DNA from: a bacterium
GTDB lineage: Bacteria; Fidelibacterota; Fidelibacteria; Fidelibacterales; Fidelibacteraceae
Direction of reading: 5' to 3'
DNA length: 64,000 nt
Assembly (NCBI GenBank): GCA_963676395.1
Contig: OY781066.1
Coordinates: 2,080,001-2,144,000 of the forward strand
The notes below the pieces were generated by a model that ran no database searches, was not told the origin of the DNA, and saw only the letters and a program-made list of their open reading frames with translations. A program made the position numbers and the translations under genes. This document shows, piece by piece, positions 10,480-55,599 of the stretch (positions are counted from its first letter, which is position 1; each line of letters starts with the position of its first letter).

Positions 10480-11835
10480 TTATTCTTCTCTATCGGGATC
10501 TTCAACGACAACGTCATCTACTTTGGTAAATCTTAAAACTCTGTTATTGCCATTATCAAAGGTGTAGAGTACTTCATCGTAAAAAGTAAGTGCCAAAGGA
10601 TTGTTCAGGAGATCGGGGTATTGTTGTAAAACAAGTGTATCTTTTACAACAAGAGAATCTCCTATATATGAGGAATCGCTTACTCTGATCCATTCCTCTC
10701 GTACTACGATAGATTTAATGAATTTACCTTGAGCTGAAAACATTTTTACATCACGATCTAATGTATCGAGCACAAAGATGCTATTATCGTTTGCTACGGT
10801 AATATCTCTGGCATAGCCATAAGCACCCAAACCCATGATGTCATCGATACCAACGAGAAATTGTGTGTTATAAGAACTTGAGTTTAGTTTATGTACAGAA
10901 AAATATTCTCCGGTTTGTGTGTAATAAACACTTCCACCATTATCTGATGCCATTGATATAGGTTGAGAAACCGTTCCGGCACCTGTTCCGGGTGTAGCGA
11001 TAAAGTCATCAAGCATACCGGTATACTGCCATACATTTTGACCGTTTTCCAAATGTACCAAGACCGTGGGTACCAGAAGTATTTCTAAAAGATAATTGTT
11101 TATGGCATCTGCCGCATAAATGGACATTTGGTCAGTCGCCGCCGGTGCTAAAGCAACAAATGATTTGTTCTGAGCGGCATAAATAGGATTTCCCCCAACA
11201 ATTGTTGTGCCGCTTGCGGTATCAACTAATCCATTTATATTAAGATCGGAGCTTGGATCATAAAAAATTCTTGGTGCCATCATTGAATCAATAGCGGCAG
11301 TGCTTGTACTGTCGATTACTTCTGAGCCTGAAATGGGTGAGTACCCCATGTAGAGTCCATCCAAAGGATGCATGGTAACCGTATCGGAGCCTACAAGGTA
11401 ATCCCGTTCAAGCACAATGCCTTTAATGCCGATGGTCGCTACAAATTGCGGCCAGAACCAGATCACATCACTATCATCGGTATAATACACATTAAATCTT
11501 GCATCTAAACATACCGCAGTCGGAGAAATGTTAAGATGTTTTAGTGAATCATATAAACCGTTTTCCACTTCTCCCGAAGGGCGGATAACAGTAATGCTGT
11601 TTGCGATAGAATCAGCAATATATATACGTCCGTCTTTAGAAGAAAAGGCATCAACAGGTGTGTGCAGATCCAATTCGCCAAAGGTCCAATCAGGAGTAAT
11701 TTGCACATATTTATTAGGATCATTGTTGATCCCGCCGTTTCCACCGCCATTGCTGGGAAGTGATATGTTTTCCGAACAGGAGATCAATAAGATGATCGTA
11801 AATAAGATCAGGGATGTTTTTAATAGATTTTTCAT
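10480..11835 (-). CDS. Lipoprotein with an NHL-like beta-propeller
   Basis: Lipobox LISC; repeats P.D....DGRIYIADS, IFVLDT, NNP..L....EVLY.FD.GNNRVLRF. Confidence 0.75.
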   Translation of the reverse strand: MKNLLKTSLILFTIILLISCSENISLPSNGGGNGGINNDPNKYVQITPDWTFGELDLHTPVDAFSSKDGRIYIADSIANSITVIRPSGEVENGLYDSLKHLNISPTAVCLDARFNVYYTDDSDVIWFWPQFVATIGIKGIVLERDYLVGSDTVTMHPLDGLYMGYSPISGSEVIDSTSTAAIDSMMAPRIFYDPSSDLNINGLVDTASGTTIVGGNPIYAAQNKSFVALAPAATDQMSIYAADAINNYLLEILLVPTVLVHLENGQNVWQYTGMLDDFIATPGTGAGTVSQPISMASDNGGSVYYTQTGEYFSVHKLNSSSYNTQFLVGIDDIMGLGAYGYARDITVANDNSIFVLDTLDRDVKMFSAQGKFIKSIVVREEWIRVSDSSYIGDSLVVKDTLVLQQYPDLLNNPLALTFYDEVLYTFDNGNNRVLRFTKVDDVVVEDPDREE

Positions 11836-12797
11836 TAGAAATTATAACTTATTTGAATTTGATTAACGATACCAAGATATATATGTGGACGAAATGCATA
11901 ATCGACCGTTAGGCCGGAATTCCATCGCTCAGTTGAAAATCCCAGTCCCATAGAAAAAGGGATCTCTGTTCCTATACAATAACCAGCGCGGACTTCCACA
12001 GCTTCAAAGAGTTTTGCATTCACGCCAAGAACATAGGTTTCATCATTGTCAACCGGGTGATTTAATTGTGCGGATACAAGAAGGTCCATGAAGTCATTTT
12101 CATAAATGGTTATAGAAGAGCCGATATGAAAGGTAGTGGGAGGAGCAAAAGTTGCGTATTCGCGTTCATCTCCATCACTTGAGATATAAGTGCCTGCGGG
12201 TCCTGCCGGAGTTCCGAAATTCAATAACGCAACAGCAAGAGTCATATCTTTAAATCCGGTTCTATAGAATGTTCCCAGATCCATAACAATGGATGTGGTT
12301 GCCATATCAAGGTATTCTTCCCTTACCATTCTTGCTGAAAAACCAAAAGAAAATCGATCGCTCATTTTACGTGAGGCATTTAAACCCACATAATAGTCGG
12401 CGTATGAAAAATAATCTCCGGAACCGTAGGGATTGTATTCGGTAGTGATTTCCATCGGATCCATGTGTAAGGCGCCAATTTCCACACCGAATGCCCAAGA
12501 GCCCATGGTATGAGCAGCCGCAATGTATTCGTAGCCGATACCGTCAAACCATTGTAGGTGGCTCAAACTTACAGATGTTCCCTCTAATTGCACCGTAATG
12601 GCAGGATTCCAATGGATGGCGGATGCATCGGAAACAACCGAAGTAAAAGCACCACCAATGCCGGCTGATGTTGCCGATGGATCAATTTTGAGGAAGTTGA
12701 AAATAGATGTTCCGGCTCTTTGTCCGCCTAAACCGGCGAATAGCATTGAAGCGCTAAAAAGTAGAACAATTGCGAATTTATGTTTGTTTTGTCTCAT
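11835..12797 (-). CDS. PorV/PorQ-family (UPF0164-like) outer-membrane beta-barrel
   Basis: GTS..NFLKI...A...G.GGA, AIHWNPA, D.G, DYAF, C-terminal YNF. Confidence 0.85.
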   Translation of the reverse strand: MRQNKHKFAIVLLFSASMLFAGLGGQRAGTSIFNFLKIDPSATSAGIGGAFTSVVSDASAIHWNPAITVQLEGTSVSLSHLQWFDGIGYEYIAAAHTMGSWAFGVEIGALHMDPMEITTEYNPYGSGDYFSYADYYVGLNASRKMSDRFSFGFSARMVREEYLDMATTSIVMDLGTFYRTGFKDMTLAVALLNFGTPAGPAGTYISSDGDEREYATFAPPTTFHIGSSITIYENDFMDLLVSAQLNHPVDNDETYVLGVNAKLFEAVEVRAGYCIGTEIPFSMGLGFSTERWNSGLTVDYAFRPHIYLGIVNQIQISYNF

Positions 12798-12800
12798 TTG

Positions 12801-15500
12801 TTAAAACCTTAAAAAGAGTCCTAGCATGATCTGGCGGGGTGAATAGTAACGGGATGGATCCAAATTGGGATTTCTTCCCGCATAGTAGGTGTATGAAATG
12901 ATCTCGCCGGGATCATAAGGTTGACCGGTAAAAGGATTGATCCTTCTGGGTACTTTGTAATTGAAAATATTTTCTACATCGATATAAAATCCGTATGTCA
13001 GGTTTTTATAATAGAAGTCTTTAGTAAATTTTAGATCAACCGTAATATAGGGATCCGCGATTTCGCCATAGGGATTGTCACTACGTGAAGTACCAATATA
13101 CCACATGGTTCCATCAGAGGTAGTTACCGTATCCAAAACTACACTTTCAGTATAGCGTTTTCCCGCTTGTGCTTCAATATGCGCATTTAATGACCAGTTG
13201 TTAATCCATGGAGAAAGATCATCTTCATACATATGAAGCCTGAGGTTTCCGATCAATCTGAAGGGCTCATCCCATGAAAGATAATTCTCGGTCAGAGGTT
13301 TTTCGGGGATCATACCTGCTTCAACCAATACATTATCATCGGGTGAGGAGCTTTTACCGGTTGTTACTGAATAGGTAAAAGAAGCATCGCCGCTGAAGAA
13401 TCTACCGGCGGTTTGACGGAACATAAATTCAAGTCCGTAAGAGCGGGCATAATCCATATTTAAATACATCATTAAGCTATAGTTTCCAACCAAGGGGTTG
13501 AAAGATGTAATGGTTTGTGCCGTTTCATAATCAAACATATCTTTGTAATAGGCTTTAAATTCGACGGCCGATGCGGCGGAGAACTTATGTTTTAGACCGA
13601 TCTCGTATGCCACGGTTGTTTTAGGATCTAAATTCGGGTTACCGATAAGTGAATAGGGGTTATCTGAAACGGTATTCAATTTGGCATAAACATAATTGTA
13701 AGTGGGTAGCTGTGAGAAATGCCCATAGTTAAAGTACAATACATCATTATCCGTAACCGGATGAGAAATACCCAAGCGAGGACTCAGGTGCCCTTTAAAT
13801 CTTGCACCAAAGAGATTATTGGTTTCATCAAAATAACGTTGCCTACCGGCTTCTGTGATCGTTAAGATATCCGGATTCATCATTGCTTCGGTGACTTCTT
13901 TTCCGATGAACCAGTAATCATAGCGCATACCGATATTTGCGATCATACCTTCGAAAGTGATTTTATCTTGTAGGTAAAAAGAACCATCGGAGGGTTTTAC
14001 ATTATAGTAATCATAACTTTCTCCCAAGCCGGAACCCAACCAAGGTTTATAAATATCAATAACCTGCATATCGGTTGAACGGTGTTCAAAGCCAGCCTTT
14101 ACTTTATGTCGAGTGCTTGGGTGATAGGTAAAATCAGTCGACAAGGTGAAATTTTTACTCCAGTAGTCATACCAATAGGGTGCATCACCATGATCCCAGA
14201 ACTCATCACCGGTATAAACCACAACATTACCAAATTCATCGCGAGTTGAATATTCGGTAGGATCTATATCAAGAATTTCATCGTATTGGGTCCAGTGTTT
14301 ATTTTGTACGGCTTTATGAAACGAGGTATAAAAGTAGCCGGCATTAACCGTATAAAATAGTTTTGGATTGATAGTATGAGTCCACAAGGCATTCACAACC
14401 TTAGATTCTGATGTAAAGGTGGGGTAATTATCCAGCATTTCTTGGAATGCATATGGATATGATGATTTTCTAAAATAGCCTTGATTGACATTTGCAGACT
14501 GGTTATATGAGATGGAAAATTTATATTTTTGTTGATAATTCCAAGAAAGCTTTGCCATGGTGGACATATTGTTCTCTTGACGATTAGTAAAGACATTCAT
14601 CCAATCCCGATAGGGATACAGTTTTTCAGAGCCCGGTAAATAGGAGTCGGATAAATATAGATATCCACTGACAAAATATGAAAGATACCCGGGAATAAGT
14701 TTACTGTTGCCATTGATCAGAGGTCCGCCCAAGGTGAATTCGATATTGTCTGTACCAAAGCCGTTACTTCCAAAAAGCTGGTCTGTTTTATATCTTGCGG
14801 AGCCTTCAAGATTAGCAGCACCTTCTTTTAATTTAACATCAATGATACCTGACATTGCTTGCCCGTATTCGGCATTAAATCCTCCGGTAATGATCTCTAA
14901 CTCTTCAATAGCGTTTGAATTAACATACAAACTGGAAGTTTGTCCGGTAAGGGGATCCTTGATTGAAAGTCCATCAACGATGAACTGTGATTCGTCAACT
15001 CGACCACCCCGGATATGGATTTCGTTGTTTGATGTAGAAACACCGGCTTGCTGACCGACAATATCTGCGACACTTTCAACGATCTTACCCAAAAGGTCAT
15101 CGGATGAAACCGAAACGGAAGACGCTGTTGATGTTGCATCGATCAGAGGTTTTTCTCCCACAACCACGACATCTTCGCCAAGGGCGAGAACAGTTGTTTC
15201 CAAGGCGACATCAATTTTAATGGTTTCATCTTGATCTAACTCTATACCACCGTGGATATATTGTTTATAACCGATCATAGAAACCATCATATCGTAGGTT
15301 CCCTGGCCCATACCTGTGATGGTAAATGAACCATCCATGGATGTTGCTGCCCCGTAATATGTACCTTTGAGGATGATATTTACACCTACCATTGGTTCCT
15401 TGGTTTCTGCATCGGTGACAACACCACGAATGACAGCTGCGCTTAAAATACAGCTTAAGGTTATTGTTAAAACAGCAATGTACTTGATAATTTGTTTCAT
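12801..15500 (-). CDS. TonB-dependent receptor with an N-terminal carboxypeptidase-regulatory-like domain
   Basis: IRGVVTDAET.EP..GVN, HIRGGR, GGFNAEYGQAMSG, SPRLG, GNPNL.P, C-terminal F. Confidence 0.92.
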   Translation of the reverse strand: MKQIIKYIAVLTITLSCILSAAVIRGVVTDAETKEPMVGVNIILKGTYYGAATSMDGSFTITGMGQGTYDMMVSMIGYKQYIHGGIELDQDETIKIDVALETTVLALGEDVVVVGEKPLIDATSTASSVSVSSDDLLGKIVESVADIVGQQAGVSTSNNEIHIRGGRVDESQFIVDGLSIKDPLTGQTSSLYVNSNAIEELEIITGGFNAEYGQAMSGIIDVKLKEGAANLEGSARYKTDQLFGSNGFGTDNIEFTLGGPLINGNSKLIPGYLSYFVSGYLYLSDSYLPGSEKLYPYRDWMNVFTNRQENNMSTMAKLSWNYQQKYKFSISYNQSANVNQGYFRKSSYPYAFQEMLDNYPTFTSESKVVNALWTHTINPKLFYTVNAGYFYTSFHKAVQNKHWTQYDEILDIDPTEYSTRDEFGNVVVYTGDEFWDHGDAPYWYDYWSKNFTLSTDFTYHPSTRHKVKAGFEHRSTDMQVIDIYKPWLGSGLGESYDYYNVKPSDGSFYLQDKITFEGMIANIGMRYDYWFIGKEVTEAMMNPDILTITEAGRQRYFDETNNLFGARFKGHLSPRLGISHPVTDNDVLYFNYGHFSQLPTYNYVYAKLNTVSDNPYSLIGNPNLDPKTTVAYEIGLKHKFSAASAVEFKAYYKDMFDYETAQTITSFNPLVGNYSLMMYLNMDYARSYGLEFMFRQTAGRFFSGDASFTYSVTTGKSSSPDDNVLVEAGMIPEKPLTENYLSWDEPFRLIGNLRLHMYEDDLSPWINNWSLNAHIEAQAGKRYTESVVLDTVTTSDGTMWYIGTSRSDNPYGEIADPYITVDLKFTKDFYYKNLTYGFYIDVENIFNYKVPRRINPFTGQPYDPGEIISYTYYAGRNPNLDPSRYYSPRQIMLGLFLRF

Positions 15501-15501
15501 A

Positions 15502-17022
15502 TTACTCGTTTATTTCAAATATGTGTCTGAATAGTTCGTCAAGATTGTTATTTCCTCTTAAATAATACAAAGGAATTGACATATAGTAACAGGTGCCATC
15601 TCCAATGGGAGTTTCGATCATGACTGTTGGTTCACCGGTATAATCACTGGTATTCAATGAGTCGTGTTCAAAATGATATCTTAATGTTGAAGTAGCACCG
15701 GGTTCAATGGCATATAGTTTATCTGCCAAAGTAGAGGAGGTTTTTAGAGTCAATTCACTATTTAATGTTGAGTCTCCCCAGCTAGGAATAATATTTACAT
15801 CCGAATATATACGACCGGTGGGGCTGTATTGATAGACTGTGTCGATATCCGTAAAGGTCCATACCGTGTCGGGGCGTGAGCCGGTAGCAACTTTTTGAGC
15901 GTTATTAACAAACAGTGTACCGCCATCACCAACAAAACGTGTTAAGGCCAAGGAAGCTTCATTTAATGAGTTTGATCCTCTAAAGGTAAACCAGAAGACG
16001 TTGGAAAAAGTACTTAAGTTAAGTTCGATATCTTCAGCGGAGTAGGGAATGGTGTTTGCCGTATTGTTGCTTCCCCCGCCAATTTCCCAAATAGAATAGT
16101 TATTTGCACCCAGTAAACCTTCTACAATACCTGTGTAGAGATTCTGGTGAGAATAAGCTACTTGATCTCCGGGGAAATCATTGACGATGAGCATATCACC
16201 TTTAGGTTCAATAACTTCCCATGTAAGGATCTCAGATTCATCTGAATTAGGATCCGGGAATGATATTATATCGCTTTCGGCACCAGCAATATCCTTAACT
16301 TTCAGGTAGAAACGATGTCTTCCTGCCGGGATCTCAGTCAGCATGATCTCACTGATATCTCCATCTAATTTAATCCATGTGCTGGTATCGTCTAAAGCAT
16401 AAAATACTTCTGTAATAGTTTCCCTTCCGTCAATATCAGAGACATCCCAGAAAAACGAATGGTGCTGGAAAGAATAATGCACTGAGTCTTCTGTTTTTGA
16501 GCTTTGAGGGATAGTGCCGAGTTTCCATTCAACCTCGGGAGGTGAGTTGAAAACCGGAAATGTCGCTATTGCTGGTGTTGGGTCAATGGCATTACTGTCA
16601 TCCACTGCCTGAACATAAAAAGAATACACATCAAGTTGTGTACGTAGCGGTAAATAAAAAATTGCTGATTCGTCCTGTGTGAAAATCGATGTATCCATAT
16701 AGGACCAACGGTAATAGTAGCCGATAACATTGCCATCGGGATCATCTCCCCACCAATGAACTTCTTGGACTGAGATGGTTGTATCCAATCCCATGATTAA
16801 TGTATCACCATCTTCTACCCAAACGGTATCTCCGTTATTGATCCAATAATCTCCGGGCCCCAATGTTGTATCGGGATTATAGAAAAATGAAACATGAGTT
16901 TCGGGAGGTAAGTTTCCGGATGTTGAATCAGGTAATTTTGGGTGAAACAGATCGCAGGCAACCAATGACAGTAAAATGATAACTGCGAATACAACTAATG
17001 TTATTTGCTTGGTATTTTTCAT
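15502..17022 (-). CDS. Lipoprotein of unknown function (Ig-like domains plus a C-terminal alpha/beta domain)
   Basis: Lipobox LVAC; NLPPET, W.G.DPDG.V.GY, F.V.AVD....DPTPA. Confidence 0.75.
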   Translation of the reverse strand: MKNTKQITLVVFAVIILLSLVACDLFHPKLPDSTSGNLPPETHVSFFYNPDTTLGPGDYWINNGDTVWVEDGDTLIMGLDTTISVQEVHWWGDDPDGNVIGYYYRWSYMDTSIFTQDESAIFYLPLRTQLDVYSFYVQAVDDSNAIDPTPAIATFPVFNSPPEVEWKLGTIPQSSKTEDSVHYSFQHHSFFWDVSDIDGRETITEVFYALDDTSTWIKLDGDISEIMLTEIPAGRHRFYLKVKDIAGAESDIISFPDPNSDESEILTWEVIEPKGDMLIVNDFPGDQVAYSHQNLYTGIVEGLLGANNYSIWEIGGGSNNTANTIPYSAEDIELNLSTFSNVFWFTFRGSNSLNEASLALTRFVGDGGTLFVNNAQKVATGSRPDTVWTFTDIDTVYQYSPTGRIYSDVNIIPSWGDSTLNSELTLKTSSTLADKLYAIEPGATSTLRYHFEHDSLNTSDYTGEPTVMIETPIGDGTCYYMSIPLYYLRGNNNLDELFRHIFEINE

Positions 17023-17034
17023 AATTTGAAAATG

Positions 17035-17062
17035 ATCCGCCTCTTCCGAAGAAGAGGCGGAT
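17035..17062 (-). terminator. Strong intra-operon hairpin with a C(UUCG)G tetraloop; partial terminator or mRNA stabiliser
   Basis: On the minus strand atccgcctcttc-ttcg-gaagaggcggat followed by catttt. Confidence 0.7.
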
Positions 17063-17076
17063 ACTATCCTAAACTC

Positions 17077-19728
17077 TTATTTTAAGAGTACAAGTTTGTT
17101 TGTAGCGGTGAATTCGGGTGTTTCGATACGATAGAGATACATACCTGATGAGAGGTGTGCGGCATTCCAACGTAAGTCGTAAGCACCGGCATTCATGCTG
17201 GTGTTGACCAATTCTTCAACCAGACGACCTGAGATGTCATAAACTGACAATTTTACGTCTGTGGCACTAGCCAATTCAAAACGAATGGTAGTTACAGGGT
17301 TGAAAGGATTGGGGAAGTTTTGATGCAATGCAAAGCTTGAAGGTATATCGGAAATTGCATCAGGAGGTGTTTCCATAAGTGTTACATCACCGTTTTTACG
17401 AACTTCGATCTTGATACTGCCATATGAGTACATGACAACACCTTTAACGGCGGCAAGTGAATCACCGGTAACCAAAGTATCGTTCCCAACAACAACATTT
17501 TCTTCATAGTTGATAACCATAACAGAATCTGCAACACAATCATCATCAAGTAAAAATGAGTTTGTACCATCGGTTAGTGTCAAATCGTAACTGTTGATAG
17601 ATCCAATTACCAATGGTGCTTCCAATTCAACCAGAACACCTTCGAATGATTCGGGATTAGCTTCCAATTCTGCAAGTGTTGCAGGGGTGGTACCAAGGGG
17701 ACCTTCACTTAGTTTTAGAGATACTGAGCCGTCAACATAAGTATTGGTCTGGTACTTCCAGTAAGCTTCATGGTCATCATCAACTTTACCGGTTACGGTA
17801 ACCAAGTCACCTTCAACGAGTGAGGCAATTTCGCTTGCAGGGGCAAGAACCCAAACACCGTTCCACGCACCTGTTGCAGAGGCAACAGGGAAAGCGCATT
17901 TATCGGCTGAATTTTTAAATGTAGCCATATCTGCACCATCACTCATCATGTAGGCATCGAATGTTACATTGCAACCATCTAGCGGACTTTTACCGCTTGC
18001 AGCGTGTGTATATTGAATGTCGTATACACTTACATTACCATCAATGACTTTGTATGTAAAGTAATTACTTTCTTCATAATTTGAAGGAAGTGCAGATACA
18101 TCGCTTGAATCATCAACAACATAGTAATAGTATTCAACAATAGCGTCATCAGCTTGCGCAGGGATAACACCTGTCCAGATATTGCCTGTACTTTCAGTCA
18201 TATTTACAGATGTAAAATCACCATCGTTGACTTTGTAATATATTTTTGCAGTGTCAATGTTTCTCAACGTTGAGATAAGAACATTGGCTGTAACGGTTTG
18301 AGTAGGTGTTGGGATATTAGCCGGTGTTCTTGAAGGGTTCAAGAGCATAGCAGGACCTTCACCCAAAACAATGTCTTCTTTGTAAAGCGGTTCGATTTTG
18401 TATGTTGTAGAATCGACATGAGAACCATAGTGATGATAGATCCATCCGGTGACAGATTCAATCGGGGTCATTACCGGAGGAGCAAGATAATCTTCCAAAC
18501 TATCAGAATCACTGTCTACAAGGATATCACCTGAGCCATCATCAATGCCCATAATTTCGTATTGTGGCGTATTATTTACAACCAAGGCATTTTCAATTTT
18601 TACAATATTGTTACCCCATTGTTCGGCTGTAAGAGGTATACGAAGATCACCGGTTGTTACAACTGCTGTATCAGGAAGAGCGCTAACGCCAACAACGTTG
18701 ACGTCGCCAACCAAGAAGAATTCAGTCATATTTGCAGGTGAAGTAGAATATTCACCGACATAACCGCTCATTTCAATGAGATCAGTGGCAAATAAGTCAG
18801 GATATACCGAAGCATCCTGGTTGTAGGATAGAATACATGACCAAGGACCGCCGTGTACATCTGATAGGATGAACTTAACACCATCTCCGGCATACGATAA
18901 ACCGGTAGGCATGGTAACAACGCCTTTAATGTGGAAAGTTGTATCGGCAGGGTTATCTCTATCGGCACCTTCATCAAAGTAAGATTTATCTGATTCGCCG
19001 TCTTTTAGTGCTTTCATAAGATCAGAGGCGCGAACTTGCTGAATTCTTTGAATACGAGTGTAAATTTTTGTTCCACCTTTTAAAGGACCTTCGATAATAT
19101 CCCATGCCAGGCGAGGTAGGATTTTAGGATTATCGTAAGAGTAATTCATAACACCTGTAATTGAAATTAATGAATCATATTCATCTTGCCAGAAATAATA
19201 TGGTGCTTGACCTTCGTCGTCAACCATAACTGAATCTGTCGCATCGCAAACTTCCCATTCACCGTAGCTTTTATCGGGATTAGAGATAGCTACATTTTTT
19301 AAACTGACAAGTACAGATTCATATTCTTCAAGTTTTGCATCGGCAGCGCTTAATACTAGTGGAGCAGGGCAACCAACACCGGCTTGTTCAACAACAACGG
19401 CTGTAACATCTTTAAGTCTTGTCATACCGTAGTTTTCATGTGTTGTACCTGAAATTGTGACCGAATCACCTTCAGCAACGATCGTCGTATCACCAACGAA
19501 AGATGAAATATTAGCACCGAGCTTGATATATAGTCCGCTCCAAGGGCCAGTACCGTCCTGAATAAACATGTAATCGCCACCCAAGGCATATGGTTCAACG
19601 GTAACAACACCGGAAACCGTTACAGCGGTTCCTTCGGCAACTGTACCTTGTTGGATATCACTGATCGTGGTCGCAAAAGCTGATACGGCCAAGACGAGTG
19701 ATATCATAATGATTAGAAATTTTCTCAT
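17077..19728 (-). CDS. Secreted protein with three tandem OB-fold-like modules and a T9SS type A/FlgD-Ig C-terminal sorting domain
   Basis: Signal peptide; repeats of I.DIQ...V.GVVT...F..D..GPWSG...GD.V...G; C-terminal NFPNPFNPVTTIRF...SSGMYLY...KLVLLK. Confidence 0.8.
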   Translation of the reverse strand: MRKFLIIMISLVLAVSAFATTISDIQQGTVAEGTAVTVSGVVTVEPYALGGDYMFIQDGTGPWSGLYIKLGANISSFVGDTTIVAEGDSVTISGTTHENYGMTRLKDVTAVVVEQAGVGCPAPLVLSAADAKLEEYESVLVSLKNVAISNPDKSYGEWEVCDATDSVMVDDEGQAPYYFWQDEYDSLISITGVMNYSYDNPKILPRLAWDIIEGPLKGGTKIYTRIQRIQQVRASDLMKALKDGESDKSYFDEGADRDNPADTTFHIKGVVTMPTGLSYAGDGVKFILSDVHGGPWSCILSYNQDASVYPDLFATDLIEMSGYVGEYSTSPANMTEFFLVGDVNVVGVSALPDTAVVTTGDLRIPLTAEQWGNNIVKIENALVVNNTPQYEIMGIDDGSGDILVDSDSDSLEDYLAPPVMTPIESVTGWIYHHYGSHVDSTTYKIEPLYKEDIVLGEGPAMLLNPSRTPANIPTPTQTVTANVLISTLRNIDTAKIYYKVNDGDFTSVNMTESTGNIWTGVIPAQADDAIVEYYYYVVDDSSDVSALPSNYEESNYFTYKVIDGNVSVYDIQYTHAASGKSPLDGCNVTFDAYMMSDGADMATFKNSADKCAFPVASATGAWNGVWVLAPASEIASLVEGDLVTVTGKVDDDHEAYWKYQTNTYVDGSVSLKLSEGPLGTTPATLAELEANPESFEGVLVELEAPLVIGSINSYDLTLTDGTNSFLLDDDCVADSVMVINYEENVVVGNDTLVTGDSLAAVKGVVMYSYGSIKIEVRKNGDVTLMETPPDAISDIPSSFALHQNFPNPFNPVTTIRFELASATDVKLSVYDISGRLVEELVNTSMNAGAYDLRWNAAHLSSGMYLYRIETPEFTATNKLVLLK

Positions 19729-19750
19729 CTGTTTTCTCCTTGTTTGTATA

Positions 19751-21901: not shown

Positions 21902-21925
21902 TATAATCCTCTGTTTCCAAGTGCT

Positions 21926-21954
21926 AAGATAAGGGCATTATATAGCAATGTCAA
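21926..21954 (-). promoter_or_regulatory. Putative sigma70 promoter of cassette 1
   Basis: TTGACA-17 nt-TATCTT on the minus strand, about 25 nt before the GTG start. Confidence 0.55.
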
Positions 21955-22522: not shown

Positions 22523-22550
22523 TTGACAGATTATTTAAAATAAGGATAAT
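22523..22550 (+). promoter_or_regulatory. Putative sigma70 promoter upstream of purB
   Basis: TTGACA-16 nt-GATAAT. Confidence 0.35.
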
Positions 22551-22745
22551 ATGTTTAAGGTTTTAAGTATAATAAGTATCAGTCGTGTTCTAAACCTATA
22601 TAAAATTGGTTGCTCATTATTTATAATTAATAATTCAATATTCACTATTCATAATTGCCTTAGGAGAATTGTTGCATTATATTTCAGCGTGGATGGTGAA
22701 TCGCTCGATTTGCCGGGTAAAAGGGTAAAAAGTAAAGGATCAGAG

Positions 22746-41565: not shown

Positions 41566-41593
41566 GAAAGGAACGGTTTAGGCCGTTCCTTTT
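41566..41593. repeat. 28-bp REP-like palindrome
   Basis: gaaaggaacggtttaggccgttcctttt. Confidence 0.75.
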
Positions 41594-42863: not shown

Positions 42864-42871
42864 GGACAAAT

Positions 42872-46060: not shown

Positions 46061-46108
46061 AATACAATAAATGATCCGTTGCATGAGATTAATTTTTTCA
46101 ACGGAAAT

Positions 46109-46162
46109 TATCATTTTGACCGGAATAAGGAACGTTTAGTGGCGAATGCTGCGGAGAAATCC
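46109..46162. repeat. Half copy of a MITE/REP-like element related to 62881-63067
   Basis: tatcattttgaccgg matches the reverse complement of 63053-63067 at 13/15; ends in ggagaaatc. Confidence 0.45.
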
Positions 46163-46454
46163 AAAATATGACGGTTGAAATCAGTAGCTGAATATTCATT
46201 TCTCGTTTGAAATCTTTTCATGTCTTTTCAAAAAAGCAGACTAGGTAGAGTTGACAGTATTGTTTCATTTAAATGATATCCACTTTACACAACGGGTAAT
46301 AATGTAATGTGAGGACTGGGGAAATGTAGTCTTTTTTTGTGCTTTTGAAATAATAAAGCATCAGGTAAGTCGCACTTTACTAAATGGTTATATATGCTGA
46401 ATAGTATTATTAATTCGACTAAATGGAAAACATTATTATTTAAATTAAAAAATA

Positions 46455-46483
46455 TTGCCAATGAAAATATCTTATAGTAAATT
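46455..46483 (+). promoter_or_regulatory. Putative sigma70 promoter of cassette 2
   Basis: TTGCCA-17 nt-TAAATT, about 50 nt before ATG 46534. Confidence 0.45.
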
Positions 46484-46533
46484 GAGAAACATTTTTATTA
46501 TAGTGAATTAAGCTAATTATAATGGAGGTTGAA

Positions 46534-48351: not shown

Positions 48352-48364
48352 TCATGATGATCCT

Positions 48365-48394
48365 AAGGGAGAGGTCTTCCTCTCCCTTTTTTTT
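48365..48394 (+). terminator. Intrinsic terminator inside cassette 2
   Basis: aagggagagg-tctt-cctctccctt followed by a T tract. Confidence 0.8.
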
Positions 48395-48433
48395 GTCTTG
48401 TCTTAATTTTATTTGTTATAAAAAGGAATTAGA

Positions 48434-51250
48434 ATGCAAAGGAAGTTGTTTATTGTAATATTTGCAATCTTCTCCATTATCTCAGTTGTATTTGCTGGTA
48501 CCTCCGGTAAAATTGCCGGAACGGTTCTTGATAATGACAGTGGCGATCCATTGATCGGCGTAAATGTCATGCTTGCAGGTACTTCAGTGGGAGCTGCCAC
48601 TGATCTAGAGGGTTATTTTACCATACTTAATGTATCTCCCGGTGTATATGAATTGGTTGCAACATCAATTGGTTACAAAACTTTTCGTATGAAAGATGTT
48701 CGTGTGTCAGTGGATCATACGACAAATATTGACATTAGCATGGAAACATCTGTTATTGCAGGTGAGGAAGTGGTTGTTGTAGCACAAAAAGAATTGATCC
48801 AGAAGGGGCTGACCTCCTCCGAGTCAAGTATTTCTGAAGATGAACTGGAGGCTATGCCGGTTGAATCATTTACCGGACTTTTAGCAACGCAAGCAGGGGT
48901 GACACAAGGTTCTGACGGTAAATTACACGTTAGAGGTGGTAGGTCCAGTGAAATTACATACATGGTTGACGGTATTCCGGTATCCAGTGATCTTGGCCTT
49001 TCGTTATCTACAAATGTTATTTCAGAATTAACATTGATTTCAGGTACTTTTAATGCTGAGTATGGTAAAGCCATGAGTGGAATTGTTAATATCGCCACTA
49101 AGGAAGGTGCTACAGAATTTAAATCACGGATTACAGCACAATTGGGTGATATGTTAACTTGGAACGATACCCATATCAAAGGAAATGAATTTAATCCGTT
49201 GGTATTTCAGCGTTATGATTTAGATATTAGCGGCCCTATCTCATTTTTATCTCAAGGATCTTATTTTATTACGGGAACGATAAGAAATAATTTGGGATGG
49301 CGTTATGGTGTGCGTGAGCATACAACTTATGATTATGGCCAAATTGGGAATAATAGTGCTAGGGTTCTGATGACCGGTGACAGTGCCTATGTACCTATGA
49401 ACACGAGCAATTCAGAAAAAATTATGGCAAAAATGTCATTTAAACCTCTGAAAAATACGAAACTTATGTATCAATTTATTGGTGATTTTGGCAGTTGGCA
49501 AAATTACGAACATCGTTGGAGATATGCTCCGGACGGACGTTATCAATATCATTCAAATGATATAATGCATGCGTTGCATATTACTCAAACGATTAATGAA
49601 AAAACATATTTTACTTTGAAATATTCATATAAATCAAGTCATTCGGAACAGTATGTAAATAAGATCGAATGGCCGGATAATTATAATGAAGATATCAATG
49701 GTAATGGTGTTATCGACATTATCCCGGGTTTGAATGTTTCCGAAGATCTAAACGGTAATGGTGTTTTAGATGATAATCTTGCCATAGATTGGGAATTTGT
49801 AAATAAATATGGTGCGTTTGTTCCCAATGATACCTGGTATAGCATCAATTTAGGTGATACGACTATCAATATTCCTTATTATGTTCAGGATAATGGAAGA
49901 ACCGATGTTCCGGCCTATCATTTTTATTATGGTGGACAAAGCATGGGGTATTACATTTCCGAAGACAAATCACACACTGTAAAGTTTGATTTTACTTCTC
50001 AGGTTAATCGCGAGAATCAAATTCGTGCTGGAATTGAGTTTAATGCATACGAGAGACATAGAAATTCTTCTGTTTTGCAGATGAGTGAGCAAGATGGAAC
50101 AATTCCTCCATTTATTCAAAATGCCGGTGTTGCAAATCATGATTATTATACGCATAATCCCGTTGACTTCTCAGCGTATATACAGGATAAAATTGAAGTT
50201 AAAGATATTATTATCCAAGCTGGATTGCGTTATGATTACTTTAATGCAAATACTATTTGTATCGATCCTTTGACAAGCGATACAACAAATGCCAGCGCTA
50301 AACATCAATTAAGTCCTCGTTTGGGAGTATCATTTCCCATTACTGATCAAGGATTTATCCACTTCTCATATGGGCACTTCTTTCAGATGCCCTCTTTTTA
50401 CTACTTGTATACCAACCCGCTTCAGAAGCGGGGAGCCAGTGTGTCCAGATTTGGAAATCCTGATATTGACCCTCAAAAAACAGTTATGTATGAACTTGGT
50501 TTACAACAGCAGTTATCACCTTCAACAGCTATTGATTTGACTATCTTTTATCGAGATATTATCAACTGGTTATCTACGGAGTACAATTTTGTTGACAATG
50601 CTTATAAATACACACGCTATATTACTGAAGATTATGGTAACGTGAGAGGTATTACCTTTGCTTTTACACAGCGAGGTGGGCAGATGCTGACTTTTAATGC
50701 CGATTACACCTATCAGATTGCTGAAGGTAATGCTTCGTCTCCCGATGCAAAGTATTATGATGCTTTAAATAATGTCGAAAGTGAGACCAAGGTTGTTCCT
50801 TTAGACTGGGATGTACGTCACAGTATCAATGGTAACTTAACCATTACACCCATGAAAGATCTCGGTATTGGTATTTTAGGTAGATTCTCAACAGGGAAGC
50901 CATATACACCAACTGTACAAGGTCAAAGAGATGCGGAAGAAAACTCAGACAGAAAACTGTCAGAATTCACCGTTGATTTTAAAGTATTTAAATATTTTAA
51001 TATTGGTAAGCAACGTTTCAGTGTGAACCTAAAGGTATACAATTTACTTGATAGGGCAAATGAATTGGTTGTATTTACAGATACAGGTAGATCGGGTTAT
51101 ACGCTGACTCCTACATATGTTGGTGATCCGGCAGAAAAATATTCCGGTACTCCAGGTATTCATTCGTTGGAAGAATATCTGTATACACCCACGAATTATT
51201 CCACACCGAGACAGATACTCTTGAGTGTCAGTTGGGATATAAACTCTTAA
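48434..51250 (+). CDS. TonB-dependent receptor, paralog of 12801-15500
   Basis: GKIAGTV.D...GDPLIG.N, HVRGGRS, GTFNAEYGKAMSG, SPRLGVSFP, GNPD..PQKT..YELG. Confidence 0.92.
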   Translation: MQRKLFIVIFAIFSIISVVFAGTSGKIAGTVLDNDSGDPLIGVNVMLAGTSVGAATDLEGYFTILNVSPGVYELVATSIGYKTFRMKDVRVSVDHTTNIDISMETSVIAGEEVVVVAQKELIQKGLTSSESSISEDELEAMPVESFTGLLATQAGVTQGSDGKLHVRGGRSSEITYMVDGIPVSSDLGLSLSTNVISELTLISGTFNAEYGKAMSGIVNIATKEGATEFKSRITAQLGDMLTWNDTHIKGNEFNPLVFQRYDLDISGPISFLSQGSYFITGTIRNNLGWRYGVREHTTYDYGQIGNNSARVLMTGDSAYVPMNTSNSEKIMAKMSFKPLKNTKLMYQFIGDFGSWQNYEHRWRYAPDGRYQYHSNDIMHALHITQTINEKTYFTLKYSYKSSHSEQYVNKIEWPDNYNEDINGNGVIDIIPGLNVSEDLNGNGVLDDNLAIDWEFVNKYGAFVPNDTWYSINLGDTTINIPYYVQDNGRTDVPAYHFYYGGQSMGYYISEDKSHTVKFDFTSQVNRENQIRAGIEFNAYERHRNSSVLQMSEQDGTIPPFIQNAGVANHDYYTHNPVDFSAYIQDKIEVKDIIIQAGLRYDYFNANTICIDPLTSDTTNASAKHQLSPRLGVSFPITDQGFIHFSYGHFFQMPSFYYLYTNPLQKRGASVSRFGNPDIDPQKTVMYELGLQQQLSPSTAIDLTIFYRDIINWLSTEYNFVDNAYKYTRYITEDYGNVRGITFAFTQRGGQMLTFNADYTYQIAEGNASSPDAKYYDALNNVESETKVVPLDWDVRHSINGNLTITPMKDLGIGILGRFSTGKPYTPTVQGQRDAEENSDRKLSEFTVDFKVFKYFNIGKQRFSVNLKVYNLLDRANELVVFTDTGRSGYTLTPTYVGDPAEKYSGTPGIHSLEEYLYTPTNYSTPRQILLSVSWDINS

Positions 51251-51265
51251 GTTATGAGGATTGTA

Positions 51266-54200
51266 ATGAAATCTATAAATAAAATCATTGTCCTCTTTCT
51301 TGTTATTTATTGTTCTTTCCTTTTTGCACTGGAACCTGGGGCAAAGGTAACATCCGGTAATGAAAAAGAGGTATTTTTTAGAAAACAACAAGCTATGCAG
51401 CAACCAACGATCACGGATGAAGAACGTCCTGTGCCACGAGAAGCTATCGTATCGGGTAACCAGATAAGAACTATTGTATTTGATTACGGTTCAATTGGTC
51501 ACCCCTCAAGAGAACCTTCAATGGAATGGCCTATTTATTCCGCTCACGGTTATGCATACGAATTTGGCCCTCTTGTAGGTGTTGAAGTACCCGTTGATAC
51601 AAACGGTTATTATATTTCCGCTTATTCAGGTGATGAAGGTCAAAAAGAACTCGATACGAGCGTACCGGGTTATGATACAACTTACTATATTGTAACAGAC
51701 GGTTTACTCTCCGGTGGTGGTGTACTGATGAATGAAGTCAGTCCTACTAACTATCGTTGGGGATGGGAACCATTAGATGGTTATGGAAACGATGAAAGTG
51801 AAAGCATTCCTTTATCACATAAACCTGAAACATGGAATCCCGACTGGGGTAACAACTGGCCGGGTACATACAAAGCCGGTGTTTCATCTGCAGATCAGGC
51901 GATCTATTATGAAATGGACGATCGTTACAATTTAGAATTCTACCCTGCATTTAAACCCTTTCATCCAGACGATGTAACGGCTATTGATTCTGTTAAATTG
52001 ACTTATGGTGGTACTGGTTTACATGTTGTGGTTAGAGCTTATCAGTGGTCTAACCCTGAAGCAAATGATGTGATTTTCTTTGTTTATGAAATCACTAATG
52101 AAAGTCATAATGATTACGAAAAGGTCGTATTTGGTATGTTTGGCGATCCGCATATTGGTGGATCAAACGATTATTCCGATGATATGGCTTATTTTGATAA
52201 TACCTTAAATATGGTTTACGGTTACGACGGTGATAATCGTGGTGACTGGAATGGTATTACAGGTTGGTTAGGTTATACTTTTCTCGAAAGCCCCGGTAAC
52301 CCCTATGATGGTATTGATAATGATAACGATGGCATGGTTGATGAATCTATGCAGGATGGTATTGATAATGATGGCGATTGGGATGCCGAAGTACACGATG
52401 TTGGCGAAGATGGTTTAGGACCATTAGATCCCGGTTACCCCGGTCCCGATTTTGGTGAAGGTGACGGTGTTCCAACTCCTGGAGATCCTGATGATCCTAC
52501 CAAACCGGGTGAACCGAATTTTGATGCAACTGATCTTGATGAGGCCGATCAGATTGGTTTGACTAGTTTCGATGCTTTTGAATATGGTGCATCAGGCGTT
52601 CGCTACGATAATGCTATGTGGGCAAAGATGACCCCCGAAGTTCCTTTGACTGACGATAATACGGAAATCACTCAGCGTGCGGATAATATTTTCCTTTATG
52701 GAACAGGTTACTTTCCTTTGAAAGCAGGAGATTCTCAGAGATTTTCGATTGCCTTGTTGATGGGAGTTGATAAACGTGATCTTTATGAAACGGCAAATAC
52801 GGTACAGACTATTTATGATAACGGATACCAGTTTGCTGTGGCTCCGTACAAGCCAAAACTTACGATTGTTCCAGGGGATGGACGTGTTTCATTATATTGG
52901 GATGATGCTGCTGAGAATTCATATGATCCACTGTTTGGATATGATTTTGAAGGTTATGCAATCTATCGTTCGACCGATCCGGGTTTTAATGAATGTTTAA
53001 CCATTACAAATGCATTCGGTGTTCCGACATTGCATAAACCCATTGCCAAATTTGATCTTGATAATGGTATTACCGGTCCTGCTACAGTAGGTAATGGTGG
53101 TGTTCATTATGATTTAGGTACGGACAATGGTTTGGTTCATGAATATGTTGATACCGGACTTGTAAATGGTGTTACATACTATTATGCCGTTTGTTCTTAC
53201 GATATAGGTGATACCAGTGGAATTCACAATTTAACGCCGACAGAATGTACAAAGATTATTGACCAGGATCCTTATACAAAAGAGATTACATTGGATGATA
53301 ATACAGGTATGGCGACACCTCAAAAAGCCTCACCCGGTGTACAAGCTCCCGAACTGTTTAATGGTGAGCTCGATCGTACAAAATGTAAATCGGGGACGGG
53401 TGATATTGATATTGAATTTGTTGATATGATCAATGTTAAGAGTGATATGGAATATGAGATAACATTTGAAAACAGTGGTGTTGGTGGTGATCTTGAAATG
53501 TCAGTAACCAATTTGACAACGATTTATCATGATACTATTGAAGTTGTTACTACCCTGTGGACTCAAATGAATAAAACGCAGGTTTCACATGTTGAGGCAC
53601 GTGATAATGCTGGTAATATAATTTCACCGACACTTTATAATGTGGATAATGCAATCGGTCGTATTCAATTCGATGATAGTCTTCTGAATGAAACGGTCTA
53701 CTTAACATTTAATTATAAACCAATATTTAGAACGACGTATTTGGATAAAGAAGATGGTATGCCTGTTTTTGACGGCATGAAAATTTATGTCCAAAATGAC
53801 AACTTGGAAAGAAGTGACGAAAGAAGTGGGTGGATAAACAGCGAAACTAATTTATTGTCAAGCGTTACGTTGGAATCGGATATGATCTATGCACACGACT
53901 ATAAATTGGTATGGAACAGTGCGTACGAAAGTAGTCCCACTGTATTTAATCAATATGCACCTTTCAAGGTATATGACATGTATGATACCAGTGTAGCTCC
54001 TATTTATTTTTCTCCCCATGTAAATGGTCATTATACTATTAATTCGGATATTTTTATTTTGAGTGAAGCAACGGCATCACCGGACTACAATTTATGGCGA
54101 ATTTGGTTCAAGAATCCTGTTGTGGGTGAAACGATTATGCCTCAGGATGGTGATGAGTATAGAATTACTCTGAATAGACCATTTATTGCAAGCGATACAA

Positions 54201-54592
54201 TCAGTTTCAGTACCTTACCCGCTGAGTATGATCCTTCAGAAATTGATAATCCATTGGATGCGATCGTAGTGGTGCCGAATCCTTATACGGCCCAAGCTAT
54301 TTGGGAACCGTCTAATGGTTATGTCTCGGGGCGTGGTGAAAGACGGGTTTATTTTACTAATTTACCCCCTGTCTGCACTATTAAGATCTTTACTATCAGT
54401 GGTGAACATGTGAGAACACTTGAACACAATGACGGTGGAGACGTTAATCGGGTCATGTTCGATGGATCGGAATCCTATGATCTATTGAATAAGGATAATT
54501 CCGATATTGCTTTTGGTGTATATTTATGGCAGGTAGACGCCAAAGCATCGGGATTGGGTATTAAAACAGGAAAATTTGCGGTGATAAAATGA
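51266..54592 (+). CDS. Large secreted protein with acidic Ca-binding-like repeats, an Fn3-like domain and a PNPY-type sorting domain
   Basis: Signal peptide; DGIDND.DG repeats; P..PKL...PGDGRV.LYW, DFEGY; C-terminal VVPNPY...FTNLP..CTIKIFTISGE...GKFAVIK; RBS GAGGA. Confidence 0.82.
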   Translation: MKSINKIIVLFLVIYCSFLFALEPGAKVTSGNEKEVFFRKQQAMQQPTITDEERPVPREAIVSGNQIRTIVFDYGSIGHPSREPSMEWPIYSAHGYAYEFGPLVGVEVPVDTNGYYISAYSGDEGQKELDTSVPGYDTTYYIVTDGLLSGGGVLMNEVSPTNYRWGWEPLDGYGNDESESIPLSHKPETWNPDWGNNWPGTYKAGVSSADQAIYYEMDDRYNLEFYPAFKPFHPDDVTAIDSVKLTYGGTGLHVVVRAYQWSNPEANDVIFFVYEITNESHNDYEKVVFGMFGDPHIGGSNDYSDDMAYFDNTLNMVYGYDGDNRGDWNGITGWLGYTFLESPGNPYDGIDNDNDGMVDESMQDGIDNDGDWDAEVHDVGEDGLGPLDPGYPGPDFGEGDGVPTPGDPDDPTKPGEPNFDATDLDEADQIGLTSFDAFEYGASGVRYDNAMWAKMTPEVPLTDDNTEITQRADNIFLYGTGYFPLKAGDSQRFSIALLMGVDKRDLYETANTVQTIYDNGYQFAVAPYKPKLTIVPGDGRVSLYWDDAAENSYDPLFGYDFEGYAIYRSTDPGFNECLTITNAFGVPTLHKPIAKFDLDNGITGPATVGNGGVHYDLGTDNGLVHEYVDTGLVNGVTYYYAVCSYDIGDTSGIHNLTPTECTKIIDQDPYTKEITLDDNTGMATPQKASPGVQAPELFNGELDRTKCKSGTGDIDIEFVDMINVKSDMEYEITFENSGVGGDLEMSVTNLTTIYHDTIEVVTTLWTQMNKTQVSHVEARDNAGNIISPTLYNVDNAIGRIQFDDSLLNETVYLTFNYKPIFRTTYLDKEDGMPVFDGMKIYVQNDNLERSDERSGWINSETNLLSSVTLESDMIYAHDYKLVWNSAYESSPTVFNQYAPFKVYDMYDTSVAPIYFSPHVNGHYTINSDIFILSEATASPDYNLWRIWFKNPVVGETIMPQDGDEYRITLNRPFIASDTISFSTLPAEYDPSEIDNPLDAIVVVPNPYTAQAIWEPSNGYVSGRGERRVYFTNLPPVCTIKIFTISGEHVRTLEHNDGGDVNRVMFDGSESYDLLNKDNSDIAFGVYLWQVDAKASGLGIKTGKFAVIK

Positions 54593-55599
54593 GAAAATAT
54601 ATTAAATACTTTTTATGCTTTATCGTTGCAATCTCTCAATTGTTTGCAACAACCAAATCAGGTACCTCTGCTGCTCAATTCCTGAAGATCGGCACTCAGG
54701 CCGGAACTTTGGGCATGGGGGAAGCCGTTGTCGCCAATCCCGTAGGTCTTTCCGCAATACAGTGGAATCCCGCCGGTTTGGCACGCTATGGTACACAGAC
54801 TGCCTCTTTCTCACAGTCAAACTGGTTGGTAGATACCGATTTTATGAATGCGGCCGCTGCCATTAATTTAGGCAGAATGGGTGCTGTCGGTTTCCAGTTA
54901 ACCATGTTGGATTACGGTGAAATGCGGGTTCGTACCGAATATGAACCCGATGGAACAGGGGAGTACTTTTCTGCTCAGGATTTTAACATGTCTTTAGCCT
55001 ATGCTAATAATCTAACTGATAGATTCTCTATTGGTGGTCAGGTTAAATATATTCAGCAGACTATTTGGCACATGAGTGCCTCAACCATCGCTTTTGATGT
55101 AGGCGCCTTGTTTACAACACCTTTCAAAGATATCCGTTTGGGTATGTCTATTACTAACTTTGGTGGTTATATGAGATTGACTGGTCGTGATATTAGTTTT
55201 TACGAAGATCCTGCTGAAGATATGTATGGTAACAATGGACATATTCCCGCTGAGTATACTATGGACAGTTGGGCCCTGCCTTTAACCTTTAGAGTTGGCC
55301 TCTCAGGCGATATTATTGATAAAGGCTATCTGCGTTGGACTTGGGCAATTGATGCGCTCCATCCCAGCGATAACACCGAATACATTAATGTGGGTACAGA
55401 ACTTGCACTTTGGAAGTTATTGTATCTTCGTACCGGCTATCGTACCATATTCATGGATGAAAGTCAGGGTGGTTTTACTGCCGGTATAGGCATGAACTAT
55501 AAATTCTCAGGGAATACAGGCGTTAATTTTGATTATGCTTTTGTATCTTACGGAGACCTTGGTTATGTAAATATGTTTACGATCGGTTTAGACTTCTAA
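54589..55599 (+). CDS. PorV/PorQ-family outer-membrane beta-barrel
   Basis: GTSAAQFLKIG, WNPAGL, FDVG, LP.TFRVG, DYAF, C-terminal F; ATGA overlap with the upstream gene. Confidence 0.88.
   Translation: MRKYIKYFLCFIVAISQLFATTKSGTSAAQFLKIGTQAGTLGMGEAVVANPVGLSAIQWNPAGLARYGTQTASFSQSNWLVDTDFMNAAAAINLGRMGAVGFQLTMLDYGEMRVRTEYEPDGTGEYFSAQDFNMSLAYANNLTDRFSIGGQVKYIQQTIWHMSASTIAFDVGALFTTPFKDIRLGMSITNFGGYMRLTGRDISFYEDPAEDMYGNNGHIPAEYTMDSWALPLTFRVGLSGDIIDKGYLRWTWAIDALHPSDNTEYINVGTELALWKLLYLRTGYRTIFMDESQGGFTAGIGMNYKFSGNTGVNFDYAFVSYGDLGYVNMFTIGLDF

Follow-up and report, generated by a model that had tools for sequence, protein, structure and literature searches.

What partners a TonB-dependent receptor (TBDR) in a genome that encodes no SusD? 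TonB-dependent uptake with a surface partner is the central polymer-harvest route of Bacteroidota; to our knowledge, nearly all work on it concerns SusC/SusD-type pairs, in which the partner is a lipoprotein. The question is raised by two loci in a 64,000-nucleotide stretch of DNA from a bacterium of the family Fidelibacteraceae (assembly GCA_963676395.1, contig OY781066.1, positions 2,080,001 to 2,144,000), which we refer to as the window and whose numbering is used below. Locus A (10480–21901, minus strand) and locus B (46522–55599, plus strand) each encode a TBDR, a barrel of the PorV/PorQ family, a protein that ends in an unusual C-terminal domain (CTD) with a PNPY motif (the PNPY protein) and a protein with an ordinary T9SS (type IX secretion system) type-A CTD. 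On balance, we lean toward reading both loci as an outer-membrane capture-and-import module of the FCB superphylum with a core of TBDR, PNPY protein and dedicated PorV/PorQ-family barrel. This trio and its gene order are conserved across phyla.

A conserved trio of genes

The features of the two loci are listed here in the order of transcription.

Locus A
19751–21901, minus strand: PNPY-family protein, 716 aa, with a signal peptide, a predicted partial supersandwich core, an Fn3-like block and a divergent type-A-like CTD ending GRFLVIK
17077–19728, minus strand: type-A T9SS cargo protein, 883 aa, with several predicted OB-fold domains and an Ig-like domain; matches TIGR04183 and PF18962
15502–17022, minus strand: lipoprotein of no known family, 506 aa, lipobox SLVAC
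12801–15500, minus strand: TBDR, 899 aa, with CarbopepD_reg, Plug and barrel domains
11835–12797, minus strand: PorV/PorQ-family barrel, 320 aa; NF033709 PorV_fam 141.7 bits (cut-off 90)
10480–11835, minus strand: NHL-repeat lipoprotein, 451 aa, lipobox LLISC

Locus B
46522–48351, plus strand: FG-GAP propeller protein with a type-A CTD, 609 aa, accessory gene, assigned by family scans
48365–48388, plus strand: terminator-like hairpin between the genes for the FG-GAP protein and the TBDR; a T run follows its 10-bp stem
48434–51250, plus strand: TBDR, 938 aa, with CarbopepD_reg, Plug and barrel domains
51254–54592, plus strand: PNPY-family protein, 1112 aa, with a signal peptide, a predicted supersandwich that bears an acidic insert of the DGIDNDGDW type, then Fn3, variable β domains and a divergent CTD (final residues GKFAVIK)
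54589–55599, plus strand: PorV/PorQ-family barrel, 336 aa; NF033709 198.3 bits (cut-off 90)
55623–55650, plus strand: terminator-like hairpin downstream of the barrel gene, with a 12-bp stem and then a T run

A preliminary description of this DNA had assigned the same four components, including a TBDR of one subfamily, to both loci, and coordinates, family scans and pairwise BLASTP bear this out. The four parts that it named for locus A are present; the locus has six genes, packed tightly with intergenic gaps of −1 to 54 nt, and its two lipoproteins had gone unlisted. The start that it gave for locus B, 46534, is the second ATG of an open reading frame (ORF) that begins at 46522, the other ORFs lying where it had placed them, and the motifs that it quoted are all present, with two spacings off by one (the actual forms are GTS...FLKI and PKL...P).

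We surveyed one genome per species for PNPY relatives and confirmed 576 of them; the best 80 loci, which hold 95 PNPY genes and are those closest to the 1112-aa query rather than a random sample, were examined. A TBDR gene lies immediately upstream of the PNPY gene in 78 of 80 assessable cases and a PorV-like barrel gene immediately downstream in 74 of 75, with both present in 61 of the 63 fully assessable cases. The three exceptions are one locus ordered TBDR–barrel–PNPY and one with two tandem PNPY ORFs, which is counted twice. The expectation that PNPY-CTD genes would be enriched beside a TBDR and a PorV-like barrel is thus supported by this neighborhood, and the components form a modular, anciently conserved unit. 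Judged by their record titles, these loci belong to Neomarinimicrobiota, Rhodothermales, Calditrichota, KSB1, Ignavibacteria, WOR-3 and Delongbacteria. Within the host phylum, 146 of the 151 genomes that are at least 90% complete have a match to the PNPY profile, which finds 14167, 6410 and 2248 representatives among 1.84 billion proteins at E values of 1e-3, 1e-10 and 1e-30, respectively; the weaker tiers may take in Fn3-only or CTD-only matches.

The fourth component is looser, and the proposal of a four-component unit holds for the invariant trio only. A same-strand gene for a type-A CTD protein is directly adjacent in 22 of 31 cassettes with at least 2.5 kb of sequence on both sides, and this cargo is therefore facultative; in locus B, the strong terminator-like hairpin at 48365–48388 sets the FG-GAP gene apart from the trio.

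The window lies within a single 2.34-Mb contig with an estimated completeness of 95%, and the closest related loci, up to about 80% identical, are titled Candidatus Neomarinimicrobiota. The cassette had been described as present twice; phmmer instead recovers four PNPY proteins from this genome, each of them with a same-subfamily TBDR and a PorV-like barrel as neighbors, and all four genome proteins that score strongly on a hidden Markov model (HMM) of the PNPY CTD (116–137 bits; 119.7 bits for the 716-aa protein) sit in such cassettes. To these is added a fifth cassette (C1:608142–626320; L004), which comprises two same-subfamily TBDRs, one PorV-family barrel (194 bits), two lipoproteins and three proteins of 740–784 aa that end in KKFIIIR and match the PNPY profile weakly (81, 50 and 34 bits), as distant relatives. 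An orphan copy is found at C1:665655–668009. Also in this genome, a group at C1:1783823–1787164 (L005) consists of a 536-aa protein with a weak CTD-like end, a barrel of the PorV/PorQ family (307 aa, 90.2 bits) and a putative outer-membrane protein of 262 aa, with no TBDR in the group. Eleven TBDR ORFs were found in the genome by phmmer. Six of them, scoring 170–474 bits against the window TBDRs, are all in PorV-like cassettes and the remaining five, at less than 85 bits, are in none, so that the association of this TBDR subfamily with PorV-like barrels is more than chance.

None of these receptors appears to be served by a SusD. In agreement with the preliminary description, family scans of the window ORFs, cassette proteins included, detect no SusD/RagB family protein, and PF07980 and PF14322 have no match in the whole genome, while the Bacteroides thetaiotaomicron control was positive. 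Against the SusC/RagA model TIGR04056 (cut-off 368.25), the 899-aa and 938-aa TBDRs score 63.6 and 87.2 bits, respectively, the alignment of the 938-aa receptor covering its N-terminal part only.

Loci A and B had also been called paralogous; they are two different, old cassette types and not recent paralogues. In pairwise BLASTP, the two TBDRs share 28% identity (E 1e-87) and the two barrels 30% (E 5e-41); the PNPY proteins align in the CTD (35% over 129 aa, 3e-18) and in the Fn3 block (28%, 5e-9), and hhalign finds them homologous over 333 columns (probability 100, E 4.6e-47). The 883-aa and 609-aa cargo proteins have only the CTD in common (37%, 6e-18, BLASTP). For each of cassettes A and B, the ranking of foreign loci is nearly the same by TBDR, by PNPY protein and by barrel, and over 47 cassettes the pairwise identities of PNPY proteins and barrels correlate with an r of 0.71 (the maximum of 1000 label permutations is 0.248), with the same nearest neighbor for both in 29 of the 47. 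Five of six tandem cassettes have, for both components, their counterpart in another genome rather than in the adjacent cassette. Since linkage alone gives such a pattern, we take the co-divergence as a record of old en-bloc duplication and not of co-adaptation.

The PNPY protein and its barrel

The PNPY proteins form an unannotated family. For the 1112-aa protein, neither Pfam nor NCBIfam has a matching family; the 716-aa protein matches none in Pfam, and its sole NCBIfam match is a weak one of its C-terminus to the CTD end of NF052228 T9SS_PorZ (23 bits, far below the cut-off of 260). Among the best 120 homologues, the only names are "hypothetical protein" or gene-call coordinates, and 113 of them have no precomputed Pfam domain. 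The AlphaFold2 model of the 1112-aa protein has a mean predicted local distance difference test score (pLDDT) of 79.7 and a predicted template modeling score (pTM) of 0.68. Residues 55–680 of this model match the N-domains of GH15 glucoamylase, GH65, GH94, GH116 and GH149 over 233–270 residues, with Z scores of 18–20.7 and a root-mean-square deviation of about 3; these Z scores come from realignment of residues 55–680 only, whole-chain Foldseek by itself having given low template modeling scores. The model contains no catalytic (α/α)6 domain. The DGIDNDGDW-type acidic insert is modeled at lower confidence and is followed by Fn3, further β domains and the CTD, and the 716-aa form has the supersandwich core, Fn3 and CTD in common with the family of the 1112-aa protein. 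As modeled, the PNPY protein is a sugar-enzyme-type N-terminal supersandwich joined to Fn3, variable β domains and a divergent type-A-like CTD. The preliminary description had placed substrate specificity in the variable type-A protein, the domain content of which does vary across loci; since the PNPY protein itself has variable middle domains, specificity need not sit there only.

Acidic motifs of a calcium-binding type recur in these families. The 938-aa TBDR of locus B has an insertion at about residues 408–445 that bears two NGNGV[IL]D motifs, and the 716-aa PNPY protein of locus A has, at about residues 415–440, the stretch GEDVNGNGRLDPEINEDQNGDGILNRF, which resembles them; such motifs are thus found in both receptor and partner families.

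The two cargo proteins carry ordinary type-A CTDs, the 883-aa protein scoring 44 bits on TIGR04183 (cut-off 23) and 42.2 bits on PF18962 (cut-off 27) and the 609-aa protein 39.5 and 31 bits, all over the curated cut-offs. The CTDs of the 716-aa and 1112-aa PNPY proteins match neither model at an E value of 0.01. A PNPY CTD profile nevertheless aligns with the profile of the genome's own type-A CTDs (probability 96.4, E 1.1e-9, 79 columns) and has an insertion of about 16 residues after the PNPY motif. By profile comparison, then, the PNPY CTD is a divergent subclass of type A and a remote relative of the ordinary form, as its separation in the preliminary description had implied.

The cassette barrels lean toward PorQ over PorV and pass neither equivalog cut-off: the 320-aa and 336-aa barrels score 81.9 and 94.8 bits, respectively, on the PorQ model NF033711 (cut-off 220) and 44.7 and 62.3 bits on the PorV model NF033710 (cut-off 250). 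According to one review (PMC10202324), the PorU CTD is retained uncleaved on PorV and the PorZ CTD on PorQ, and cognate PorV-like barrels are suggested to shield CTDs from cleavage. We modeled a single pair, residues 21–336 of the locus B barrel with residues 990–1112 of its cognate PNPY protein. This complex scores 0.92 (0.91, 0.92 and 0.92 in three runs) against 0.00 for the best of three controls; at least 88% of contacts recur between runs, and the partner pLDDT is at least 75. Of 157 solved complexes, 116 attain this mark, as do 2 of 215 mismatched pairs (rough counts, own alignments used). On the barrel side, the predicted interface consists of the GTS...FLKI segment; on the CTD side, it consists of the VVPNPY and C-terminal strands. 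Recognition of the PNPY CTD by its cognate barrel, an element of the preliminary description, is thus supported by this model and fits the PorZ–PorQ and PorU–PorV precedent, and tethering of the PNPY protein by the barrel through its CTD is plausible. A further precedent is BamG, a FadL-like barrel that holds a surface protein beside BamA (PMC12578637).

Cargo, substrates and surroundings

We scanned 35 CTD proteins that neighbor cassettes, namely 31 of 36 found (four cut ORFs and one near-duplicate were dropped) and four from the host genome. The domains detected are FG-GAP (8), CBM20 (4), Amidase_2 (4) and GH18, CBM4_9, CBM9, PKD and a MAM-like domain (1 each), and 14 of the 35 have nothing but the CTD. 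By analogy, this cassette-side cargo is seen to follow the logic of a polymer-utilization locus. Locus B amounts to the plain trio with an added FG-GAP cargo gene, and its substrate may be a glycan.

Locus A is a six-gene operon kept across the phylum. Of 301 genomes sampled in the phylum, 160 encode its 506-aa lipoprotein; in the Atlas this protein falls in unnamed Fidelibacterota clusters only, the nearest named cluster being DUF4960 at 0.90, which we treat as a lead. Among 20 relatives of the locus, chosen from long contigs and different families and hence not random, 18 keep the six genes in identical order, one is rearranged and one is without a PNPY gene in the fetched stretch; the four-gene core of lipoprotein, TBDR, barrel and NHL lipoprotein is present in all 20, always with the NHL lipoprotein gene downstream of the barrel gene. 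A secreted GDPD-family phosphodiesterase is encoded directly downstream on the same strand (9520–10428, minus); it was considered as a cassette member and rejected, as it is present in 0 of 20 related loci.

The 883-aa cargo protein may point to the substrate of this operon. Residues 15–125 and 565–683 of its model match OB/HIN folds with Z scores of 10–12, including HIN domains bound to double-stranded DNA, and it matches the N-terminal part of ExeM/NucH with 53.6 bits over model positions 40–115 only. Nine of its 14 orthologues match DUF5689 (best E 5e-16) and nine of 14 match the tRNA_anti-codon OB family. In the ddb DNA-utilization locus, which is related to Riemerella natural-transformation genes and holds three nucleases, the TBDR DdbC has DdbD, a member of DUF5689, as its proposed DNA-binding partner (PMC12478041). 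Because the cargo orthologues carry DUF5689 and OB folds as DdbD does, locus A most likely captures nucleic acid, by analogy with ddb.

The genes that flank both loci are of purine and pyrimidine biosynthesis and other housekeeping functions, and a composition profile reveals no anomaly in GC content at locus A or locus B. Scans for σ70 promoters did no better than on shuffled sequence (38 found against 40.7 expected, and 43 against 42.1). Among sequencing runs, none of an RNA type was listed for this DNA, and one of a DNA type contains it. Elsewhere in the window, the overlapping ORFs 7382–7807 and 6888–7439 (minus strand) match Aldo_ket_red at profile positions 2–112 and 117–286, and 6888–7807 looks like a frameshifted or split aldo-keto reductase gene.

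A candidate uptake module, its rivals and its meaning

In the proposed mechanism, Sec would carry the PNPY protein over the inner membrane and SprA would carry it over the outer one. The CTD of the protein, uncleaved, would stay on its own PorQ-like barrel, as the PorZ CTD does on PorQ and the PorU CTD on PorV, leaving the protein tethered to the surface with no lipid anchor. There it would bind a polymeric substrate and pass the substrate or fragments of it to the co-expressed TBDR for TonB-powered import, filling the role that lipoprotein partners such as SusD, surface glycan-binding proteins and DdbD have in Bacteroidota. The adjoining ordinary type-A cargo would contribute substrate-specific binding or cutting.

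The host genome encodes SprA/Sov (TIGR04189, 706.1 bits, cut-off 200), the PorU sortase (NF033707, 612.6 bits, cut-off 420) and a general PorV candidate of 466 aa (256.8 bits on PorV_fam, and 208 bits against a cut-off of 250 on the PorV model), together with 76 ORFs that have a type-A CTD at E <1e-5 by an HMM built from the genome's own CTDs. A second PorU-like protein of 1605 aa (C1:1318727–1324587; L137:28–5888) scores 210 bits, under the cut-off, and adjoins a weak PorV-like barrel 8 kb upstream of SprA; the two may be a second sortase/barrel pair. The T9SS core that the preliminary description had presumed is thus recovered as far as SprA, PorU and a PorV candidate, and its Gld part is not. 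Because no Gld positive control responded, the term "T9SS-dependent" rests on SprA, PorU, PorV and the 76 CTD-bearing ORFs.

Several observations weigh against the capture-and-import module. GldL, GldM and GldN have no match in the host genome with five models (TIGR03513, TIGR03517, TIGR03523, PF12081 and PF19841) and GldK has a weak one (67 bits against a cut-off of 350), although no Gld model exceeds its cut-off in any control genome and four respond nowhere, so that absence is not established; GldM is likewise unmatched in five other cassette-bearing genomes, including two Rhodothermales chromosomes, again with no responding control. PorV has been solved in SprA complexes (6h3i, 8gl6–8gln), and the score of 0.92 may reflect likeness to these and not the pair itself. 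The predicted interface is more conserved than the rest of either protein (means of 0.69 versus 0.56 for the barrel and 0.73 versus 0.59 for the CTD); since it uses the most conserved, family-wide positions, the model argues for class-level rather than paralogue-specific recognition. The link of PNPY protein and barrel to the TBDR is one of gene order alone, co-divergence of PNPY protein and barrel is expected from linkage, and no fusion of the barrel with a PNPY protein or TBDR was found among eight longer barrel relatives (which carry TPR, OmpA and other domains), a result that is weak either way. A common supersandwich fold is no proof of sugar binding. For the nucleic-acid reading of locus A, family scans detect no nuclease catalytic domain in its six proteins, and the window 883-aa protein itself has no DUF5689 or tRNA_anti-codon match at an E value of 0.01.

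These points leave room for an account, which we regard as unlikely, in which the barrel is a private export shuttle for the PNPY CTD, as PorP/SprF is for type-B cargo, and the PNPY protein is then released or fixed by PorU, serving the same pathway as the TBDR with no stable tether or complex. A shuttle would need the modeled CTD–barrel recognition equally, the conserved positions of the interface and a TBDR link by gene order suit it as well, and PorP/SprF-like barrels are described as cargo-specific transport partners (PMC10202324). One barrel for nearly every PNPY gene, however, exceeds the catalytic need in a genome that has a general PorV candidate, and the barrels lean to PorQ, which is the anchor. 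A surface-coat, adhesion or cell–cell device, with the TBDR serving signaling or an unrelated small ligand, would account for FG-GAP, Fn3, acidic calcium-binding-type repeats and NHL propellers, all common in adhesins, and for the lack of any degradative enzyme in the two window loci and their housekeeping neighbors. The TBDR is nevertheless the most constant neighbor of the PNPY gene, cargo near other copies has CBM20, GH18, CBM4_9, CBM9 and Amidase_2 domains, and the cargo family of locus A is DUF5689, as in the DNA-uptake partner DdbD; we consider such a device quite improbable. We attach very little probability to a channel of the FadL type that would stand beside the TBDR and import a hydrophobic or small product, with the PNPY CTD as an ordinary cleaved signal: PorV is a FadL homologue (PMC12578637) and a weak UPF0164 match was seen, but the barrels pass the PorV/PorQ family model and not a FadL model, the predicted interface with the CTD includes their conserved GTS...FLKI segment near the N-terminus, and the barrel gene always follows a CTD-bearing gene.

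The capture-and-import module, which we continue to favor, can be set beside several known systems. Like SusC/SusD (RagA/RagB), it has a CarbopepD_reg-type TBDR encoded beside a large surface partner, accessory binding or hydrolytic proteins and many paralogous loci per genome; unlike them, its TBDRs fall under the SusC/RagA cut-off, it has no SusD family member, its partner is a Sec/T9SS-type CTD protein and not a lipoprotein, and a PorV-like barrel is obligatory. With PorQ–PorZ and PorV–PorU of Porphyromonas gingivalis, for which retention is published (PMC10202324), it shares a PorV/PorQ-family barrel paired with one CTD-bearing surface protein; the weak match of the 716-aa C-terminus to the PorZ CTD and the presence of PorZ (5m11) among the Foldseek matches of the PNPY model add to this likeness. 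The cassette barrels differ in falling under the equivalog cut-offs, the partner has no PorZ or PorU body, and there are several TBDR-tied copies per genome. PorP/SprF with type-B cargo such as SprB likewise has a cargo-specific PorV-like barrel beside the cargo gene, whereas the cassette CTD is a type-A variant, the cassette barrel belongs to the PorV/PorQ family by its model score, and PorP/SprF has no described TBDR link.

Locus A resembles ddbABCDEF in pairing a TBDR with an OB-fold protein, the orthologues of which match DUF5689 and the model of which is like HIN/OB DNA binders. In ddb, the partner adjoining the TBDR is reported to be a DUF5689 protein of unknown function and three nucleases are in the locus (PMC12478041), whereas the OB protein of locus A is T9SS cargo with no nuclease domain, and the PNPY protein, PorV-like barrel and two other lipoproteins are extra. 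BamG–BamH of the Bacteroidota β-barrel assembly machinery (BAM) supplies a structural precedent, with a 14-stranded FadL/PorV-like barrel that packs on a larger barrel and holds an extracellular protein with its loops (PMC12578637); it belongs to a different machine (BamA) and to different families. Our literature search, the coverage of which excludes most subscription journals, returned no description of an operon of TBDR, PorV-like barrel and CTD protein, and a September 2026 review of glycoside transporters (PMC13543919) nowhere mentions PorV or "type IX."

An extended form of the favored reading, which as a whole we hold to be unlikely, would make the trio a single machine. The PorQ-like barrel would dock on the TBDR as BamG does on BamA, and the PNPY protein would be a T9SS-delivered, anchor-free lid over the receptor mouth. 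Such a machine would be a second, independent solution to the SusC/SusD problem and would serve many uncultured FCB phyla (Marinimicrobia, Calditrichota, KSB1, Ignavibacteria, WOR-3 and Rhodothermales) as their main device for polymer uptake, with substrates that include nucleic acid for the locus A type.

The module itself would couple type IX secretion to TonB-dependent import through an unannotated family with thousands of members, in an abundant ocean and sediment phylum (146 of the 151 near-complete genomes searched) and in several sister phyla. If this is true, the main partner of these receptors is named, the many extra PorV/PorQ paralogues outside Bacteroidota acquire a function, and substrate prediction for uncultured FCB lineages becomes testable, for example for DNA, starch, chitin and peptidoglycan-type loci.

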